Shown piece after piece: positions 21,712-55,939 of a DNA stretch of 64,000 bases. This DNA comes from Escherichia coli (lineage in GTDB: Bacteria; Pseudomonadota; Gammaproteobacteria; Enterobacterales; Enterobacteriaceae): NCBI RefSeq assembly GCF_003334305.1, contig NZ_QOWS01000001.1. One strand, written 5' to 3'. A model generated the notes under the pieces. That model did no database searches and was not told the origin of the DNA. It saw only the letters and a list, made by a program, of their open reading frames with translations. The translations under genes were made by a program, and so were the position numbers. Each line of letters opens with the position of its first letter. Positions within the stretch are counted from its first letter, which is position 1.

Positions 21712-22605
21712 TCAGCGAACGACATCCGCCAGCGCCTCTTCTAAATCGTACCAACGAAACGCAAAACCCGCTTCTTCCAGCCGTTTAGGCAGCGCGCGTT
21801 GTCCACCTAATACCAGTACTGAAGATTCGCCCATTAACAGCCGAATGGCGGTTGCGGGGACGCGCAAAATAGCCGGGCGATGCAGCGCATGACCGAGCGC
21901 ATGGGCAAATTGTTCATTGCGTATCGGGTAGGGCGAAACCATATTAAATGGCCCGCGCAGCTCGTTATCCAGCAGCCAGAGAATGCCGTTGACCATATCA
22001 TCGATATGAATCCAGGCAAGATACTGCCGACCGGAACCAATCGGCCCGCCCAGGCCAAGACGAAACGGTGGCAGCATTTTACCGAGAATACCGCCGTCCG
22101 GTGCCAGTACCACGCCGGTTCGCAGCAGGCACACTCGCGTTTTGTCACTTTGCGCCCGGCAGGCAATCTCTTCCCAGCGGGCGCAGAGTTTATGAGTAAA
22201 TTCGTTATGCGGCGGTTCCTCTTCGGTAACCACCACTTCACCTAAGTCGCCATAATAGCCCGTTGCCGAGCCGGAAATGAGTACCGACGGCGGCGTGTCG
22301 CTGGCATTAATCAAATCGACCAGTTTTTGCGTGATATTCCAGCGGCTTTGGCAGAGACGCTCTTTTTGCTCGTGAGTCCAGCGTTTATCAGCAATCGGTT
22401 CTCCGGCCAGGTTGATTACCGCATCAACGCCGTTGAGGTTGCTTTGATCGGCTAGCCCTTGCCATAGCGTCACCCGAGGGCCGAGAACGGAACTGGCTTT
22501 CTGTGGGTTACGCGTCACTACCGTGATTTGATGGCCCAGCTCCAGCAAACGCGGAATCAAATGGCGACCAATTAATCCCGTCCCTCCGGTGATCACTATG
22601 TTCAT
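21712..22605 (-). CDS. yfcH: Epimerase-family protein YfcH (NAD-dependent epimerase/dehydratase fold)
   Basis: 297-aa translation with N-terminal Rossmann motif (ITGGTGLIG). Confidence 0.88.
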
Positions 22606-22625
22606 GCAGCCTCCCGATATGGCGG

Positions 22626-22988
22626 TTAACGCTGCCAGCTTAAGGTCATGGATACCGAATCGGCGTAGCGCAGCGCGTGCAGTTTATCGATCTCCACTTC
22701 AGCATACGTCACCCAGTGATGTTCACGTGCGATATCGAGCACATCCTGAGTTAGTTTTTCCAGCAAAGAGAAACGGTTATTCTCTACATGCTGAATAATG
22801 TTTTTCGTTACGGTGCGATAATTCAGCGCATCGTTGATATCTTCGCTAGTGCGCGCTTTATCGGCGGGGTAGTGGATCGTCACATTGATAACAATATCCT
22901 GACGGTTGTTAATTTCTTCTTCCTTAATTCCGATAAACGTACGCAAACGAAGGTTCTTTATACGAATAATAGCGGCAGGTTGTGCCAT
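22626..22988 (-). CDS. folX: Dihydroneopterin triphosphate 2'-epimerase
   Basis: 120-aa translation matching FolX. Confidence 0.9.
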
Positions 22989-23044
22989 TGCAGGTTCTCC
23001 GTTGTTTTACTTAGGATGAAATAATACACGAGAACCTGTTTCTG

Positions 23045-24521
<1,477 letters not shown>

Positions 24522-24524
24522 TGA

Positions 24525-25079
24525 GTGATGAAACTGATGTTTGCATCGGACATTCATGGGTCGTTACCGGCGACGGAACGTGTTCTGGAGTTGTTTGCCC
24601 AAAGCGGTGCCCAGTGGCTGGTGATCCTTGGCGACGTGTTGAATCACGGCCCGCGTAATGCTTTACCGGAGGGTTACGCGCCAGCCAAAGTCGCTGAACG
24701 GCTTAATGAAGTGGCACATAAGGTTATCGCTGTGCGCGGCAACTGCGACAGCGAAGTGGATCAAATGCTGCTGCATTTCCCGATAACCGCGCCGTGGCAA
24801 CAGGTATTACTGGAAAAACAACGTCTGTTTTTGACGCATGGTCATCTTTTTGGCCCGGAAAATCTACCTGCTTTAAACCAGAACGATGTGCTGGTGTACG
24901 GTCATACCCATCTGCCAGTGGCAGAACAGCGGGGGGAGATTTTCCACTTCAACCCCGGCTCGGTGAGTATTCCGAAAGGCGGTAATCCGGCGAGTTATGG
25001 CATGCTGGATAATGACGTACTTAGTGTAATCGCACTCAATGATCAAAGTATCATTGCGCAGGTCGCGATTAATCCGTAA
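24525..25079 (+). CDS. yfcE: Calcineurin-like metallophosphoesterase YfcE
   Basis: 184-aa translation with metallophosphatase motifs (DIHG…GD…GNCD…GHTH). Confidence 0.88.
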   Translation: MMKLMFASDIHGSLPATERVLELFAQSGAQWLVILGDVLNHGPRNALPEGYAPAKVAERLNEVAHKVIAVRGNCDSEVDQMLLHFPITAPWQQVLLEKQRLFLTHGHLFGPENLPALNQNDVLVYGHTHLPVAEQRGEIFHFNPGSVSIPKGGNPASYGMLDNDVLSVIALNDQSIIAQVAINP

Positions 25080-25136
25080 TTTACCCACAACTCAAAATGC
25101 GCCGTAAGAGCGCCAGAAAAAGAAGGTTTCCTGATA

Positions 25137-25679
25137 ATGGAACAGCGTCGTTTGGCAAGTACTGAATGGGTGGATATTGTCAATGAAGAGAACGAAGTCA
25201 TTGCACAAGCCAGCCGGGAACAAATGCGGGCACAGTGTCTGCGTCATCGTGCAACTTACATCGTCGTGCATGATGGCATGGGCAAAATTCTGGTCCAGCG
25301 TCGTACCGAGACAAAAGACTTTTTACCCGGCATGTTAGATGCGACCGCAGGCGGTGTGGTCCAGGCCGATGAGCAACTGCTGGAATCCGCGCGTCGCGAA
25401 GCGGAAGAAGAGTTGGGCATTGCCGGTGTCCCCTTTGCCGAGCACGGGCAGTTCTATTTCGAAGATAAAAATTGCCGTGTCTGGGGCGCGTTGTTCAGCT
25501 GCGTCTCTCACGGTCCCTTCGCCCTACAGGAAGATGAAGTCAGTGAAGTTTGCTGGCTGACGCCGGAAGAAATCACCGCACGCTGCGATGAGTTCACTCC
25601 AGACTCGCTGAAAGCGCTGGCGTTGTGGATGAAGCGCAATGCCAAAAATGAAGCCGTAGAGACTGAAACGGCAGAATGA
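25137..25679 (+). CDS. yfcD: Nudix hydrolase YfcD
   Basis: 180-aa translation with Nudix box (…[10 protein letters not shown]…). Confidence 0.85.
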
Positions 25680-25711
25680 AAAAAGAGCCGCAATTGCGGC
25701 TCTTAACATTT

Positions 25712-27232
25712 TTAGTGGTAGCCCATCAACTGAGCGCCGATCACTACGACGCTGGACATAATAAACAGCAGTCCAAGTAGGGTCGCGCCCACCTTCAGCC
25801 AGTTACGGAAGTCCACCCTGCACACACCGAGAGTTGCCATTAACGAAGCTGAGGTTGGGTAAATGATGTGACTGAAGCCATCACCAAACTGGAATGCCAG
25901 CACGGTAACCTGACGGTTAACACCGACCAGATCGCCAAGCGGTGCCAGTAACGGCATGGTTAACGCCGCCTGACCAGAACCGGACGTCACGAAGAAATTA
26001 AATACCGCCTGGAAGAGCAACATAAACCAGGCCGCGACCGCGTTGTCCAGACCGCTAATGGCATTGGCAATGCTGTTGAGGATGGTATTTAACACGCTGG
26101 CATCACCCGCTTCACCATTACCGACCAGCAGCAAAATCCCTTTGGCGAAACCCACCAGCAGGGCAGGGGCGATCATCATTCGCGCCCCTTCGGTAAAGGA
26201 TGAAGCCATGGTATTAACCGTCATGCCGTTAAGGCGGAAAACAACGCCGATGATGCCAATCACCAGACCCATGGTGAAGAACTGGCTGGCAATTTCTGGA
26301 ATAAACCAGGCATTAACGATCACGCCCCAAATCACCCAGACCATTACGGCGGTCAGGACAATCAATACCAGCCAGTCACCAAAGGTAAACGGACGTTGTT
26401 CAACATCCGCCTGCTTTTCACGAAAGAAGCGGTCGGACTCATGCACGCGTGACAGAAGAGGATTCTTTTTCACTCGTGAGGCGTACACCATGGTAAAGAT
26501 CAGGCCAATCATAGTGGCGATAACCCACACCACGATGCGCAACCCGGAGCCAGAAAGCACCGGAACGCCGGCAATCCCCTGAGCAACGACCACACAAAAC
26601 GGGTTCATCCACGAACTGGCAAAACCGATTTGCGTGGCAATATAGGTCACCAGGACGGTGGTAATACTGTCATAGCCCAGCCGGACCATTAGCGGTGCGA
26701 TGATAATGGCAAAGGCGACGGCCTCTTCTCCCATACCAAATACCGCGCCGCCAAGTGAAAACAGAATAAACAGCGCAGGAATAAAGAGAATTTCATTCCC
26801 GCGGGTATGGCGAATAAGCGCCAGGATACCGTTATCAATGGTTCCTGTACGCATCACAATGCCAAACGCGCCGCCAATCACCAGCATAAACATGATGATG
26901 CCAACGGCTGTCCCGTATTTCGATCCTGAGGTTAATCCTTCAAACGGGAAGTTCATCAGGCCCGGGCGTTCATCGCCCGTCGTGAACAGCTGTACGCGGT
27001 GATACTCAGGTTCGCCTGCTTCGTTAGTCAGAATGCGAAATGAGTGTGGATCTACGACTTTGCGTGTTTTTGTTTGACCATCAACCTGATACTGCACTTC
27101 CTGACTGTCAAACATCCCCACCGGAACTACCCAGGTGGCAAGGCTGGTTAAAATAGCAACAAAAAAGATAATCACCAACGTATCGGGCATTGCCCATCTT
27201 CTTGTTGGTTTGGATTCAGTGATTGCGGACAT
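25712..27232 (-). CDS. yfcC: Inner membrane transporter YfcC
   Basis: Translation from MSAITESKPTRRWAMPDT… (506 aa), highly hydrophobic; the ORF-track start at 27253 is an upstream extension. Confidence 0.8.
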   Translation of the reverse strand: MSAITESKPTRRWAMPDTLVIIFFVAILTSLATWVVPVGMFDSQEVQYQVDGQTKTRKVVDPHSFRILTNEAGEPEYHRVQLFTTGDERPGLMNFPFEGLTSGSKYGTAVGIIMFMLVIGGAFGIVMRTGTIDNGILALIRHTRGNEILFIPALFILFSLGGAVFGMGEEAVAFAIIIAPLMVRLGYDSITTVLVTYIATQIGFASSWMNPFCVVVAQGIAGVPVLSGSGLRIVVWVIATMIGLIFTMVYASRVKKNPLLSRVHESDRFFREKQADVEQRPFTFGDWLVLIVLTAVMVWVIWGVIVNAWFIPEIASQFFTMGLVIGIIGVVFRLNGMTVNTMASSFTEGARMMIAPALLVGFAKGILLLVGNGEAGDASVLNTILNSIANAISGLDNAVAAWFMLLFQAVFNFFVTSGSGQAALTMPLLAPLGDLVGVNRQVTVLAFQFGDGFSHIIYPTSASLMATLGVCRVDFRNWLKVGATLLGLLFIMSSVVVIGAQLMGYH

Positions 27233-27348
27233 AGCGCAAATATTCCCTTGCACAAAACAAAGTGGTAAGTATGCAAAGTGAGATGGCGCAATTCATTGAT
27301 GCAGCGCAGTTAAGCAAGATAATCAGAAAGGATTAATGCAAATTAAGA

Positions 27349-27383
27349 GAATAAAAAACCGGAAATAGTGATTATTTCCGGTT
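27349..27383 (-). terminator. Rho-independent terminator downstream of pta (minus strand)
   Basis: aaccggaaata / tatttccggtt 11-bp stem followed on the minus strand by a U-rich run; a second perfect hairpin (atccgcagc-gcaaa-gctgcggat) sits at 27389-27411 immediately 3' of the pta stop. Confidence 0.6.
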
Positions 27384-27421
27384 CAGATATCCGCAGCGCA
27401 AAGCTGCGGATGATGACGAGA

Positions 27422-29566
27422 TTACTGCTGCTGTGCAGACTGAATCGCAGTCAGCGCGATGGTGTAGACGATATCGTCAACCAGTGCGCCACGGGACAGG
27501 TCGTTAACCGGCTTGCGCATACCCTGCAGCATCGGCCCGATGGAGATCAGGTCGGCAGAACGCTGTACCGCTTTGTAGGTGGTGTTACCGGTGTTCAGAT
27601 CCGGGAAGATGAACACGGTAGCGCGACCTGCAACCGGAGAGTTCGGCGCTTTGGATTTCGCAACGTCAGCCATTACCGCAGCGTCGTACTGCAGCGGACC
27701 GTCGATCATCAGGTCAGGACGTTTTTCCTGCGCCAGACGAGTTGCTTCGCGAACTTTTTCTACGTCGCTACCTGCACCAGAAGTACCGGTGGAGTAGGAG
27801 AGCATAGCAACGCGCGGTTCGATACCGAAGGCCGCAGCGGAATCAGCGGACTGAATCGCGATTTCTGCCAGCTGTTCAGCGGTCGGATCCGGGTTGATCG
27901 CACAGTCACCGTAAACGTAAACCTGTTCCGGCAGCAGCATGAAGAACACGGAAGATACCAGGGAGCTGCCCGGTGCAGTTTTGATCAGCTGCAGCGGCGG
28001 ACGGATGGTGTTTGCGGTAGTGTGAACAGCACCGGAAACCAGACCATCAACTTCATCCTGTTCCAGCATCAGCGTACCGAGCACCACGTTGTCTTCCAAC
28101 TGTTCGCGGGCAACGGTTTCGGTCATGCCTTTGTTCTTACGCAGTTCGACCAGACGACCAACATAGCTTTCGCGAACCACTTCTGGATCAACGATTTCAA
28201 TCCCTGCACCCAGTTCTACACCCTGAGACGCTGCAACACGGTTGATCTCTGCCGGATTACCCAGCAGTACGCAAGTTGCGATACCACGTTCAGCACAGAT
28301 AGCGGCTGCTTTAACGGTACGCGGTTCGTCACCTTCCGGCAGTACGATACGTTTGCCCGCTTTGCGCGCAAGTTCAGTCAGCTGATAACGGAACGCAGGC
28401 GGAGACAGACGACGGCTGCGCTCAGAAGTGGCAGTCAGAGATTCGATCCAGTCAGCGTTGATGTAGTTAGCAACGTATTCCTGAACTTTCTCGATACGCT
28501 CGTGATCGTCAACCGGAACTTCCAGGTTGAAGCTCTGCAGGCTCAGAGAGGTCTGCCAGGTGTTGGTGTTCACCATAAATACCGGCAGGCCGGTAGCGAA
28601 AGCACGTTCGCACAGTTTAGAAATGCGCGCGTCCATTTCGTAGCCGCCAGTCAGCAGCAGGGCACCGATTTCTACGCCGTTCATGGCTGCCAGGCAAGCG
28701 GCCACCAGCACGTCAGGACGGTCTGCGGAAGTCACCAGCAGAGAACCGGCACGGAAGTGCTCCAGCATGTGCGGAATGCTGCGTGCGCAGAAAGTGACGG
28801 ATTTAACGCGGCGAGTATTGATGTCGCCTTCGTTGATGATGGTCGCATTCAGGTGGCGAGCCATATCGATCGCACGAGTCGCGATCAGGTCAAAGCTCCA
28901 CGGCACAGCGCCGAGAACCGGCAGCGGGCTGGATTCTTGCAGCTTCGCCGGATCAACATTGTTTACTTTAGCTTTGGAAGAGTCGTCGAAAATCTCGGAC
29001 AGATCCGGGCGAGTACGACCCTGTTCATCAACCGGTGCGTTCAGTTTGTTAACGATAACGCCGGTGATGTTGGTGTTTTTGGCACCGCCGAAGCTGTTGC
29101 GGGTCAGTTCGATACGCTCTTTCAGCTGTTCCGGGGTGTCAGTGCCCTGAGACATAACGAAGACGATTTCCGCATTCAGCGTTTTAGCGATTTCGTAGTT
29201 CAGAGACTGGGCAAACTGGTGCTTACGTGTCGGGACCAGACCTTCAACCAGAACGACTTCAGCGTCTTTGGTGTTAGCGTGGTAGTTTGCGACGATCTCT
29301 TCCATCAGCACATCTTTCTGATTGCTGGAAAGCAGACCTTCAACGTAGCTCATTTTCAGCGGTTCAGCGGCCGTCGTGGTGGAAGAGTTCGCACGCACGA
29401 TAGTCGTAGTCTGATCGGGCGCATCGCCACCGGTACGCGGCTGAGCGATAGGTTTGAAAACGCTCAGACGAACGCCTTTGCGTTCCATTGCACGGATCAC
29501 GCCAAGGCTGACGCTGGTCAGACCGACGCTGGTTCCGGTAGGGATCAGCATAATAATACGGGACAC
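27422..29566 (-). CDS. pta: Phosphate acetyltransferase
   Basis: 714-aa translation matching Pta; GTG start. Confidence 0.95.
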
Positions 29567-29612
29567 GGTTTATCCTCTTTCGTTACCGCCGATTTGGCGG
29601 GTTACAAAACAG

Positions 29613-29635
29613 CACCGCCAGCTGAGCTGGCGGTG
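29613..29635 (-). other. ackA-pta intercistronic hairpin (10-bp perfect stem, 3-nt loop)
   Basis: caccgccagc-tga-gctggcggtg between the ackA stop and the pta start. Confidence 0.5.
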
Positions 29636-29640
29636 TGAAA

Positions 29641-30843
29641 TCAGGCAGTCAGGCGGCTCGCGTCTTGCGCGATAACCAGTTCTTCGTTGGTTGGGATAAC
29701 CACCGCAGGACGGGTACCTTCTTTGTTGATGAAACCAGATTTGCCGAAACGTGCAGCCAGGTTGCGTTCATGATCAACTTCAAAGCCCAGCACGCCCAGT
29801 TTGCCCAGAGACAGTTCACGAACCATCGCGGCATTTTCACCGATACCACCAGTGAATACAACAGCGTCCAGACGACCATCCATCAGCGCAGTGTAGGCAC
29901 CGATGTATTTCGCCAGGCGGTGGCAGTAAACGTCCATTGCGCGCTTCGCGTCTTCTTTCGTCGCGTAGTTGTCTTCAACATAGCGGCAGTCGCTGGTCAC
30001 TTCGGTCAGACCCAGCAGGCCAGACTCTTTGGTCAGCAGTTTGTTGATTGCGTCAACGCTCATGCCCAGGGTGTCGTGCAGGTGGAAGATGATCGCCGGA
30101 TCGATATCACCAGAACGGGTACCCATGACCAGACCTTCCAGCGGGGTCAGGCCCATAGAGGTGTCAACGCATTTACCGTTGCGGATAGCAGAAACGGAAC
30201 CACCGTTGCCCAGGTGGCAGGTGATGATGTTCAGTTCTTCTACCGGTTTGTTCAGCATTTTTGCCGCTTCCTGGGTTACATAGAAGTGGCTGGTGCCGTG
30301 CGCGCCGTAACGACGGATGCCGTGCTCTTTGTACAGGTTGTACGGCAGGGCGTAGAGGTAAGACTCTTCCGGCATAGTCTGGTGGAACGCGGTGTCAAAT
30401 ACAGCAACGTTTTTGTCTTTCAGCTGTGGGAAAGATTTCAGAGCTTCTTCGATACCGATCAGGTGAGCCGGGTTGTGCAGCGGTGCAAAAGAAGCTGCAT
30501 CTTTGATACCCTGAATAACAGACTCATCGATCACTACGGAGCTGGTATACTTTTCGCCGCCGTGTACGATACGGTGACCGATAGCAGTCAGCTGCGCAGA
30601 CAGTTCTGGTTTTTGTGCCAGAATAGTATTAACGATAAAGTTGAGCGCTTCGCTGTGAGCGGCGCCTGCACCTAAAGCCGCTTCCTGTTTATTGCCGTCC
30701 ATTTTCCATTTGATACGTGCTTCGGGCAGGTGGAAACATTCGGCTAAACCAGAAAGGTACTCTTCACCATTTACTGCATCGATGATGGCAAATTTCAGTG
30801 AAGAACTACCGCAGTTCAGAACCAGTACTAACTTACTCGACAT
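29641..30843 (-). CDS. ackA: Acetate kinase
   Basis: 400-aa translation matching AckA ([20 protein letters not shown]…). Confidence 0.95.
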
Positions 30844-31180
30844 GGAAGTACCTATAATTGATACGTGGCTAAAAAAACGTCAGGGAGCCATAGAGCGTAG
30901 CGCATGATGACACCGACATTTATGATTAACATCATGCACTGCAAATTTTTTTTGCATGATGGAAGAAATATCTTGAGTCTATGCCATTTTGCGTAATTTT
31001 CAGCCAATGGCATAATGTATATGAATTTGACGACTCAATGAATATGTACTACTTAGGCCTTCAGGCTGCTAAAGGATACCTGATAGTGGGTATGGAAGAC
31101 AAAATGTTTTGAACGTTGTCCCGCTGAGTTGTGAATTTGCACAAATTTTTGAATCTTTATATGTGAAGTTGAGGTGAAGC

Positions 31181-31636
31181 ATGTCAACGCCGGATAATCG
31201 TTCTGTTAATTTTTTTAGCTTGTTTCGCCGGGGACAGCATTACTCAAAGACGTGGCCGCTGGAAAAACGCCTTGCCCCGGTCTTTGTCGAAAATCGCGTT
31301 ATCAAGATGACGCGTTATGCGATCCGTTTTATGCCGCCGATCGCCGTATTTACTCTCTGCTGGCAGATTGCCCTGGGCGGTCAGCTTGGGCCGGCAGTTG
31401 CCACTGCGCTGTTCGCCTTAAGTTTACCCATGCAGGGATTGTGGTGGCTGGGCAAGCGTTCTGTAACGCCATTACCCCCTGCAATCCTTAACTGGTTTTA
31501 TGAAGTTCGCGGTAAATTGCAGGAGTCTGGACAGGTGTTGGCACCCGTTGAAGGCAAGCCTGATTACCAGGCATTAGCTGACACGCTTAAGCGCGCCTTC
31601 AAACAACTGGATAAAACTTTCCTTGATGATTTGTAA
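31181..31636 (+). CDS. yfbV: UPF0208 membrane protein YfbV
   Basis: 151-aa translation matching YfbV. Confidence 0.85.
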
Positions 31637-31640
31637 TTGA

Positions 31641-32213
<573 letters not shown>

Positions 32214-32223
32214 GGAGGCCCGT

Positions 32224-32874
32224 GTGCGGTGCAAAGGTTTTCTGTTTGATCTTGATGGAACGCTGGTGGATTCCCTGCCTGCGGTAGAACGGGCGTGGAG
32301 CAACTGGGCCAGACGTCATGGGTTAGCACCGGAAGAGGTGCTGGCTTTCATTCACGGTAAACAGGCGATCACCTCTTTGCGCCATTTTATGGCGGGCAAA
32401 TCCGAGGCTGATATTGCCGCCGAGTTTACGCGTCTGGAGCACATCGAGGCCACGGAAACCGAAGGTATTACCGCGCTTCCGGGGGCAATCGCCTTACTCA
32501 ATCATTTGAATAAAGCAGGTATTCCGTGGGCCATTGTGACTTCTGGCTCCATGCCGGTAGCGCGAGCGCGCCATAAAATAGCTGGGCTTCCCGCACCAGA
32601 GGTGTTTGTAACCGCTGAGCGAGTGAAGCGCGGAAAACCAGAACCTGATGCGTATCTGTTAGGTGCGCAGCTGCTGGGGCTTGCGCCGCAGGAGTGTGTG
32701 GTGGTGGAAGATGCTCCCGCTGGCGTGCTTTCTGGCCTGGCGGCGGGTTGCCATGTCATTGCGGTTAACGCTCCGGCAGATACCCCGCGCCTGAATGAGG
32801 TCGATTTGGTCCTCCACAGTCTGGAGCAAATTACTGTGACCAAACAGCCAAATGGCGATGTTATTATTCAGTGA
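32224..32874 (+). CDS. yfbT: HAD-family sugar phosphatase YfbT (HxpA)
   Basis: 216-aa translation with HAD motif I (FLFDLDGTLVDS); GTG start. Confidence 0.88.
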   Translation: MRCKGFLFDLDGTLVDSLPAVERAWSNWARRHGLAPEEVLAFIHGKQAITSLRHFMAGKSEADIAAEFTRLEHIEATETEGITALPGAIALLNHLNKAGIPWAIVTSGSMPVARARHKIAGLPAPEVFVTAERVKRGKPEPDAYLLGAQLLGLAPQECVVVEDAPAGVLSGLAAGCHVIAVNAPADTPRLNEVDLVLHSLEQITVTKQPNGDVIIQ

Positions 32875-55905: not shown

Positions 55906-55939
55906 TTCGACCAGTCAGCATATTTGCTGACTGGTCGAA
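55906..55939. other. Perfect 15-bp stem / 4-nt loop hairpin 17 bp downstream of the elaD stop
   Basis: ttcgaccagtcagca-tatt-tgctgactggtcgaa; likely a convergent or bidirectional terminator. Confidence 0.55.

Follow-up and report, generated by a model that had tools for sequence, protein, structure and literature searches.

Inverted repeats in two divergent promoter regions of Escherichia coli: operator sites or promoter elements

The ackA–yfbV and yfcG–yfcF intergenic regions of Escherichia coli have an ordinary divergent promoter architecture, and the inverted repeat found in each offers no good grounds for postulating a new operator. Both repeats would be side effects of the compact layout of divergent promoters and not palindromes dedicated to operator function. 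This explanation by promoter elements, with Fis possibly occupying the spacer of the ackA–yfbV repeat (repeat 1), is given about an even chance of being right for the two repeats. A first-pass annotation had described both as positioned like operators shared by divergent promoters. As an operator, repeat 1 is unproven and the yfcG–yfcF repeat (repeat 2) is unlikely. Neither repeat could be matched to a regulator or to a motif, and we know of no cognate regulator for them. The control of ackA-pta is of practical interest for fermentations, where acetate overflow occurs. The ackA–yfbV spacer is strikingly conserved, and to define a function for its block at 30976–31016 would refine the picture of a well-studied promoter. 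Most of the conserved bases are already explained by the FNR site, the mapped starts and published promoter predictions, and the importance of the repeats is small. The useful outcome is a negative one, namely that the two palindromes should not be taken as evidence for new regulators.

The window, i.e., the whole 64-kb stretch of DNA that was analyzed, is E. coli chromosome, and the assignments of ackA, yfbV, yfcG and yfcF agree with the RefSeq annotation of identical E. coli genomes. In the matching genomes ackA is annotated as acetate kinase and yfbV as terminus macrodomain insulation protein, while yfcG and yfcF are glutathione-transferase genes for two glutathione-dependent enzymes. An 801-bp stretch around repeat 1 matches 5,425 of 5,426 complete E. 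coli genomes, and in every match but one the identity reaches 99% or more. Numbering in the window is opposite in direction to that of K-12. Published U00096.2 coordinates (c) were converted for the ackA region as window = 30843 + (2,411,492 - c), with an analogous rule for yfcF/yfcG, and every published 51-nt start-site sequence proved identical to the window at its computed position. The comparative set came from a YfbV scan of species-representative genomes, which gave 80 Enterobacteriaceae loci with flanks of up to 10 kb, and the four genes were placed in these loci by tblastn. The ackA–yfbV intergenic spacer is 337 bp long in the window and the yfcG–yfcF region 135 bp. Among 77 distinct sequences the former measures 331–339 bp in 75, with a mean identity to the window of 78%.

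Repeat 2 and the yfcG and yfcF promoters

The yfcG–yfcF region contains the following features.

23721–23756, minus strand: yfcG promoter, with the -35-region CTCACG at 23751–23756 in the left arm of repeat 2, the -10 element TATACT at 23728–23733 and the start at 23721
23750–23768: perfect part of repeat 2, ACGTGA-N7-TCACGT, with 6-bp arms (6/6)
23762–23771: 10-bp perfect palindrome GTCACGTGAC, overlapping the right arm of repeat 2 and the yfcF -35 element
23767–23803, plus strand: yfcF promoter, with the -35 element GTGACA at 23767–23772, a 15-nt spacer, the -10 element TATAGT at 23788–23793 and starts at 23800 and 23803

The letters quoted for repeat 2 in the first-pass annotation are present at 23748–23755 and 23763–23770, but the 8-bp arms TTACGTGA and TCACGTGA are not an exact inverted repeat, matching at 7/8 positions as reverse complements. 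Symmetry of this degree is at chance level. In shuffles of the 135-bp region a 7/8 repeat appears in 52% and a 6-bp perfect repeat in about 47%, and the 10-bp palindrome is found in 11% (P=0.11).

What did hold of that annotation is the placement, since repeat 2 spans the -35 regions of both yfcG and yfcF, whose promoters stand back to back. The yfcG start (K-12 2,418,614; 8 reads, 29-nt leader) and the yfcF starts at 23800 and 23803 are taken from a published map, with exact 51-mer matches to the window (PMC3415461 supplement). The yfcG and yfcF start sites lie 79–82 bp apart. For both promoters under repeat 2, the sigma-70 hexamers are properly spaced from the mapped starts. Counted from the yfcG start, ACGTGA falls at -29 to -34; counted from the yfcF starts, TCACGT falls at -32 to -37. 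The left arm is the yfcG -35 region itself, and the right arm abuts and overlaps the yfcF -35 element GTGACA. The combination GTGACA-15-TATAGT has been predicted as a promoter, and sigma-70 holoenzyme alone selects the yfcG–yfcF spacer in vitro (PMC3946193). The promoter elements are also what is retained in evolution: across 24 species-level sequences the yfcG -10 element (AGTATAG) is at least 90% conserved, and GTGACAG and TATA of the yfcF promoter are conserved as well.

The symmetry itself has a different history. The 6/6 arms occur only in the window, i.e., in 1 of the 24 species-level sequences, with 4/6 in the majority, and GTCACGTGAC is a 5/5 palindrome only in the window, with 2–3/5 in the other species. 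Repeat 2 is common to mainstream E. coli strains (K-12-like, O157:H7 and others). Divergent Escherichia lineages are without its symmetry and carry the ancestral form. What the 24 sequences share, other genera included, is the conserved block GTGAGTTTTCATCAAGTGACAG, which is not palindromic. The symmetry probably arose recently, in E. coli proper, through three substitutions in this older block between the two -35 elements, and two of the three E. coli-specific substitutions raise the palindrome.

A protein bound at repeat 2 would touch both promoters, and a repressor or class II activator lying over the two -35 regions is possible; nothing indicates that one exists. The arm centers are 13 bp apart, a distance compatible with helical phasing (centers about 10–11 or 21 bp apart). 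A CRP site has the form TGTGA-N6-TCACA, and CRP was rejected for repeat 2 on this consensus because GTGA-N7-TCAC is one base too long. No second copy of repeat 2 was found in the 64-kb window when mismatches were allowed.

Repeat 1: position and conservation

Repeat 1 is a 35-bp unit in the shared upstream region of the ackA and yfbV promoters.

30980–30988: left arm TATGCCATT, identity to the window 0.89 across 77 Enterobacteriaceae
30989–31005: spacer TTGCGTAATTTTCAGCC, identity 0.84, 17 nt long in 77/77 species
31006–31014: right arm AATGGCATA, identity 0.91 across 77 Enterobacteriaceae

The 8-bp repeat of the first-pass annotation, ATGCCATT-N17-AATGGCAT, is found at 30981–31013 exactly as given there, and it extends by one base per arm to a repeat with perfectly complementary arms, TATGCCATT-N17-AATGGCATA (30980–31014, 9/9). 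When the 337-bp region is dinucleotide-shuffled, 3.6% of the shuffles contain arms of at least 9 bp with a spacer of at most 30 (P=0.036), and 15% contain arms of at least 8 bp. The window holds 18 inverted repeats with arms of at least 9 bp against 7.3 +/- 1.6 expected, so repeat 1 alone is unremarkable after multiple testing. The same spacer contains two further inverted repeats, CATCATGCA-N14-TGCATGATG at 30930–30961 and GCATGATG-N20-CATCATGC at 30902–30937, both built on GCATGATG. Shuffles of the region yield three repeats with 8-bp or longer arms in 0.05% of cases (P about 0.0005). No second copy of repeat 1 was found in the window with up to 3 mismatches.

The known regulatory features of the spacer lie to either side of the repeat.

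30885–30899, minus strand: ackA proximal promoter, with the -10 element TACGCT at 30894–30899 and a start at about 30885, about 42 nt upstream of the ATG
30923–30934, center 30928.5: FNR-type palindrome TGATTAACATCA, kept in 75/77 sequences and separate from repeat 1
30941, minus strand: ackA start with 5 reads and a 98-nt leader (PMC3415461 supplement), its 51-mer identical to the minus strand of 30941–30991
31027–31063, plus strand: main yfbV promoter, with putative hexamers TTGACG at 31027–31032 and TACTTA at 31050–31055, a 17-nt spacer and the start at 31063

Repeat 1 lies between the divergent ackA (30941) and yfbV (31063) start sites, in agreement with the earlier placement. These starts are 122 bp apart. 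The repeat occupies -39 to -73 relative to ackA 30941, its left arm falling at -39 to -47, and -49 to -83 relative to yfbV 31063; from the proximal ackA start it is more distant, at -95 to -129. The yfbV start at 31063 is represented by 69 reads and an exact 51-mer match to the window, and the same map gives a further ackA start at 31066 (4–5 reads) and a second yfbV-direction start at 30520, inside ackA (33 reads; PMC3415461 supplement). The TTGAC of the yfbV promoter is kept in 70/77 sequences. Both strands of the spacer are transcribed, and a cluster of RNase III-processed double-stranded RNA covers window 30550–31132 (PMC7373196). An RpoN genomic-SELEX peak also lies in the ackA–yfbV spacer.

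The best-conserved block of the spacer is TTTATGATTAACATCATGCACT (30917–30938, identity 0.95), and it includes the FNR-type palindrome. An FNR ChIP-seq peak at K-12 2,411,410 converts to window 30925, and ackA-pta is directly activated by FNR (PMC3688515). An FNR ChIP-chip motif overlaps 30927–30950 (PMC1802558). The proximal ackA promoter is listed with a start at -42 and the -10 element atgcGCTACGCTctat (PMC2760140 supplement), and AGCGTA, which is this -10 element, is kept in 73/77 sequences. With the ackA start at -42 from the ATG, the FNR site comes to lie near -42/-43, the usual class II position. The value of -74.5 given elsewhere is counted from that study's own start site and is not reconciled with -42/-43 (PMC3688515).

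Repeat 1 is conserved across enterobacterial regions, but not as a symmetric site. Among the 77 species complementarity of the arms is 9/9 in 31, 8/9 in 15 and at most 6/9 in 25. Conservation of at least 8/9 in 46/77 species and the invariant 17-nt spacer are both features that a protein-binding site would predict too. The symmetric-conservation test nevertheless failed: the arms (0.89 and 0.91) stand little above the spacer between them (0.84), rank at the 71st–78th percentile of 9-mers in the ackA–yfbV spacer, and keep their half-sites unequally. Base by base, the counts (n=77) are T71 A74 T55 G70 C58 C65 A70 T77 T76 in the left arm and A70 A62 T73 G77 G73 C77 A77 T49 A75 in the right. A31012 is kept in 77/77 and its partner T30982 in 55/77, and T31013 is kept in 49/77 and its partner A30981 in 74/77. 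This inequality argues against a symmetric dimer, which would constrain both partners alike. The arm centers, moreover, fail the helical-phasing test, since the 26 bp between them make about 2.5 turns of the helix. Reasoning from these coordinates, the half-sites fall on opposite faces of the helix, which is awkward for a simple dimer.

Predicted elements beneath the arms of repeat 1 and alternative readings

The pattern of conserved bases is consistent with promoter elements in opposite orientation. Five predicted elements fall in the arms and the spacer of repeat 1 or overlap their ends.

30976–30981, minus strand: predicted -10 hexamer TAGACT, facing ackA and overlapping the left arm at its outer end
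30998–31003, minus strand: -35-like CTGAAA within the repeat spacer, partner of TAGACT at a 16-nt spacing
31008–31016, plus strand: predicted extended -10-like element TGgCATAAT in the yfbV direction, within the right arm
30989–30994, plus strand: -35-like TTGCGT within the repeat spacer, partner of TGgCATAAT at a 16-nt spacing
30991–31005, plus strand: predicted Fis-like 15-mer GCGTAATTTTCAGCC, within the repeat spacer

In the proposed explanation each arm would carry a -10-like element that faces outward, TAGACT in the direction of ackA and the similar TGgCATAAT in the direction of yfbV, and the spacer would supply their -35-like partners together with an A/T-rich site of Fis type. Such a pair of similar promoter-like elements pointing in opposite directions would then be read as an inverted repeat. 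In the ackA direction, CTGAAA-16-TAGACT has been proposed as an ackA promoter within a sigma-70 RNA polymerase genomic-SELEX fragment (PMC3946193). On this strand TAnnnT is kept in 70/77 sequences, with T1, A2, A4 and T6 conserved and positions 3 and 5 variable, and the hexamer reads TAAAAT or TAGAAT in most genera. The yfbV-direction element is suggested by its conservation: 72/77 sequences keep TGnnAnnnT, with G31009, C31011 and A31012 invariant, T31016 present in 76/77 and hexamer positions 3 and 5 variable. The TTG of its -35-like partner (30989–30991) is kept in 77/77. RNA polymerase may use the hexamers of repeat 1. A sigma-70 ChIP-seq peak is centered at window 30971, but ackA P1 and the yfbV promoter, with their signals merged, would explain this peak equally well. 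A consensus promoter scan of the ackA spacer returned only two promoter-like matches, neither beneath the arms. Two published maps contain no start near 30969 (minus strand) or 31023 (plus strand), which is weak evidence, as these maps are shallow for ackA (2–5 reads) and disagree with each other.

Several candidates for a factor at repeat 1 were considered and set aside. Compared by eye with repeat 1, the consensus sequences of PurR, Cra, ArcA, IclR, Lrp, Fur and CRP gave partial or half-site matches only. FNR recognizes TTGAT-N4-ATCAA, and a site for FNR or another member of the FNR/CRP family was rejected on the consensus, neither the half-site nor the spacing being present. A sigma-54 promoter, considered in view of the RpoN peak, was also rejected: TGGC and GC are one base away from the right spacing, and the second G (31004) varies, being kept in 44/77.

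In spite of these rejections, repeat 1 could be a true operator or activator site for a dimeric or tetrameric factor that coregulates ackA-pta and yfbV, with repeat 2 an operator of recent origin through which a regulator would control the two glutathione-transferase genes. This is an unlikely combination. It would account for the perfect 9-bp arms of repeat 1, with a local P of 0.036, for their 9/9 or 8/9 complementarity in 31 and 15 of the 77 species around a spacer that is 17 nt long in all 77, and for a position at -39 to -73 and -49 to -83 of the divergent starts. It would likewise give a role to the coverage of both -35 regions by repeat 2 and to the two of three E. coli-specific substitutions that increase its palindrome. 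Against the same reading stand, at repeat 1, the unequal mirror positions, the spacer conserved nearly as well as arms that rank only at the 71st–78th percentile, the 25/77 species at 6/9 or below, the half-sites on opposite faces and the single copy in the window, and none of the papers found that mention yfbV or ackA assigns a factor to its bases. At repeat 2 it meets a symmetry no stronger than chance would give and confined to E. coli proper. In a more specific form, repeat 1 would be the site of a regulator coupling acetate overflow metabolism (ackA-pta) to the terminus-macrodomain insulation gene yfbV, which would bind two half-sites whose 17-bp spacing is the same across the Enterobacteriaceae, for example as a tetramer or with Fis bending the DNA between the arms; we regard this as distinctly improbable. 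At the other extreme the symmetry may be pure coincidence, in promoter DNA that is A/T-rich and under constraint for other reasons. Chance alone should give the window about 7 repeats whose arms reach 9 bp or more, repeat 2 is at chance level, and many intergenic regions were scanned in the first pass, but the fixed spacer, the 46/77 species with at least 8/9 complementarity and the three repeats in one spacer (P about 0.0005) make coincidence alone very unlikely.

Two further readings concern repeat 1 only. In one, a Fis site in the spacer is the functional unit, activating the yfbV and/or ackA promoters in fast growth, and the arms are incidental. A weight-matrix Fis site given for ackA, ATTTTGCGTAATTTTCAGCCAATG, coincides with 30986–31009 and so spans exactly the repeat spacer and the inner arm bases (PMC2760140 supplement). 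Its center at 30998 falls at -65 when counted from the yfbV start and at -57 when counted from ackA 30941. G30991 (77/77) and C31005 (76/77) flank an A/T-rich core, and the variable positions are the degenerate positions of the Fis motif. The pattern used here, GNNYAWWWWWYRNNC, in which one position was relaxed to fit after the sequence was seen, is kept in 60/77 species and matches 9 times in the 64-kb window against 9.2 expected. The Fis consensus prefers T where the match in the spacer needs C. Fis binding is a prediction here, and the two -35-like elements account for the same conserved bases. A Fis site as the sole functional unit is improbable as well. The other reading invokes an RNA hairpin (9-bp stem, 17-nt loop) in long ackA or yfbV leaders that would affect stability or processing. 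Transcription of both strands, starts beyond the repeat at 31066 (ackA direction) and 30520 (yfbV direction) and the double-stranded-RNA cluster over 30550–31132 would allow it; the predicted energy is -12 kcal/mol (z -2.5 on the plus strand, -3.5 on the minus strand), and most single changes on the plus strand are G-U compatible. The hairpin was rejected because covariation is lacking. In 36 distinct sequences the share of paired cells is 90.4%, compared with 89.7% for shuffles, just 2 pairs (3 cells) change on both sides, and the outer pairs break in 11–15 of the 36. The RNAalifold consensus (-1.59 kcal/mol) did not recover the stem, and the hairpin has neither an Rfam match nor a terminator-like tail. 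An Rfam scan of 22500–32500 found nothing in either spacer, with one sub-threshold Leu_leader match elsewhere, and a terminator scan found no terminators. Such a hairpin is extremely unlikely.

Comparison with known systems

Classical palindromic operators, such as those of LacI, CRP and LysR-type regulators (T-N11-A), resemble the two repeats in having inverted arms over or beside promoter elements, and TGA-N7-TCA of repeat 2 has the LysR-type form. The differences are those that weigh against operator function: in repeat 1 the arm centers are 26 bp apart and the mirror positions are unequally conserved, while the symmetry of repeat 2 is lineage specific and at chance level.

Promoters activated by FNR in class II manner carry TTGAT-N4-ATCAA centered near -41.5. 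The ackA spacer has one such site, TGATTAACATCA, about 42–43 bp upstream of the -42 start and backed by ChIP and FNR-dependent expression. Repeat 1 differs from it in lying 50–60 bp away, in being without TTGAT/ATCAA and in having a spacer of 17 rather than 4 bp. Fis sites upstream of growth-rate-regulated promoters are similar to the predicted site in the repeat 1 spacer in their 15-bp G...C unit, A/T-rich core and position at about -57 to -65, and the spacer departs from them by the C that stands where T is preferred.

Both regions resemble back-to-back divergent sigma-70 promoters whose upstream regions overlap, a general E. coli architecture. Repeat 1 differs in that the mapped promoters flank it and do not use it. 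Both spacers have been described as divergent "constitutive promoter" regions, and holoenzyme alone binds both in vitro (PMC3946193). The starts are 79–82 bp apart for yfcG/yfcF and 122 bp apart for ackA/yfbV, and in each region hexamers of opposite orientation, predicted ones in the case of repeat 1, lie beneath the arms of the repeat.

The ackA promoter and its repeats

The 337-bp spacer between the divergent genes ackA and yfbV carries the following features on the ackA side.

30902-30961: three copies of GCATGATG/CATCATGC, forming two overlapping inverted repeats
30946-30953: run of eight Ts, with the FNR site on one side and the third copy of GCATGATG on the other

The pair of inverted repeats at 30902-30961 reads GCATGATG-N20-CATCATGC and CATCATGCA-N14-TGCATGATG. 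Three repeats with arms of length at least 8 were found in only 0.05% of dinucleotide shuffles of the spacer. The middle copy of GCATGATG/CATCATGC is included in the FNR site of ackA (30923-30934), and copies one and two make up an 11-bp stem that begins at +2 of the transcript from the mapped ackA start at 30941 (minus strand). The outer pairs of this stem are not conserved, and covariation is absent from it.

Published ackA starts disagree with one another across the region 30843-30941. One study places a start at -42 (PMC2760140), another finds starts at -98 and -223 with low read counts (PMC3415461), and a third report puts FNR at -74.5 relative to an ackA start that is not stated (PMC3688515). 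The textbook status of the ackA promoter suggests a firmer map than there seems to be.

The eight-T run lies directly upstream of the mapped start at 30941. In experimental evolution the yfbV/ackA spacer gained the same +T insertion on two occasions, and the insertion was tied to a putative ArcA site (PMC3576414). Our guess is that this insertion falls in the run at 30946-30953; it is a guess because the text of that study gives no position.

Variation between and within species

Among the distinct spacers collected from Enterobacteriaceae species representatives, only two are long (462 and 464 bp), both because of a 125-127-bp insertion in Kluyvera (loci L064 and L070) located after the equivalent of position 31039. 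The insertion looks like an enterobacterial repetitive intergenic (ERIC-like) element, and at the yfbV promoter mapped in E. coli it comes between the -35 and -10 elements.

The same scan returned an Enterobacteriaceae yfbV in a 455-bp contig of an assembly labelled Microbispora bryophytorum (L021) and an Enterobacteriaceae yfbV with ackA in an assembly labelled Chryseobacterium sp. 18061 (L049). These are most likely contamination of public assemblies.

Within E. coli, the ackA-yfbV region (30600-31400) is at least 99% identical in 5,424 of 5,425 genomes. For the region of the second divergent pair, yfcG-yfcF (23560-23960, 401 bp), identity reaches only 95-99% in 2,308 of 5,426 genomes, and the YfcG proteins of GTDB "E. 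coli" representatives show just 93-94% identity. The diversity of the yfcG-yfcF region inside the species is unusually high.

Other candidate elements

25680-25798, minus strand: Rfam match below threshold, to the leader of the leucine operon, between yfcD and yfcC
25683-25704: 11-bp perfect palindrome overlapping that match
55906-55939: longest inverted repeat of the window, intergenic, with 15-bp perfect arms TTCGACCAGTCAGCA / TGCTGACTGGTCGAA and a 4-nt loop
31163-31178, minus strand: TTCACctcaacTTCAC, adjoining the yfbV start codon

The leader match reaches 26.5 bits (E=0.044), where the gathering score is 50, and is probably due to chance; the palindrome looks like a shared terminator. Beside the repeat at 55906-55939, no T-tract was found on either side.

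The element at the yfbV start codon is present in just 5 of the 77 Enterobacteriaceae sequences, every one from Escherichia. It fits TTCAC-N6-TTCAC, the consensus of the CreB "cre tag," a site that has reportedly been described upstream of ackA.
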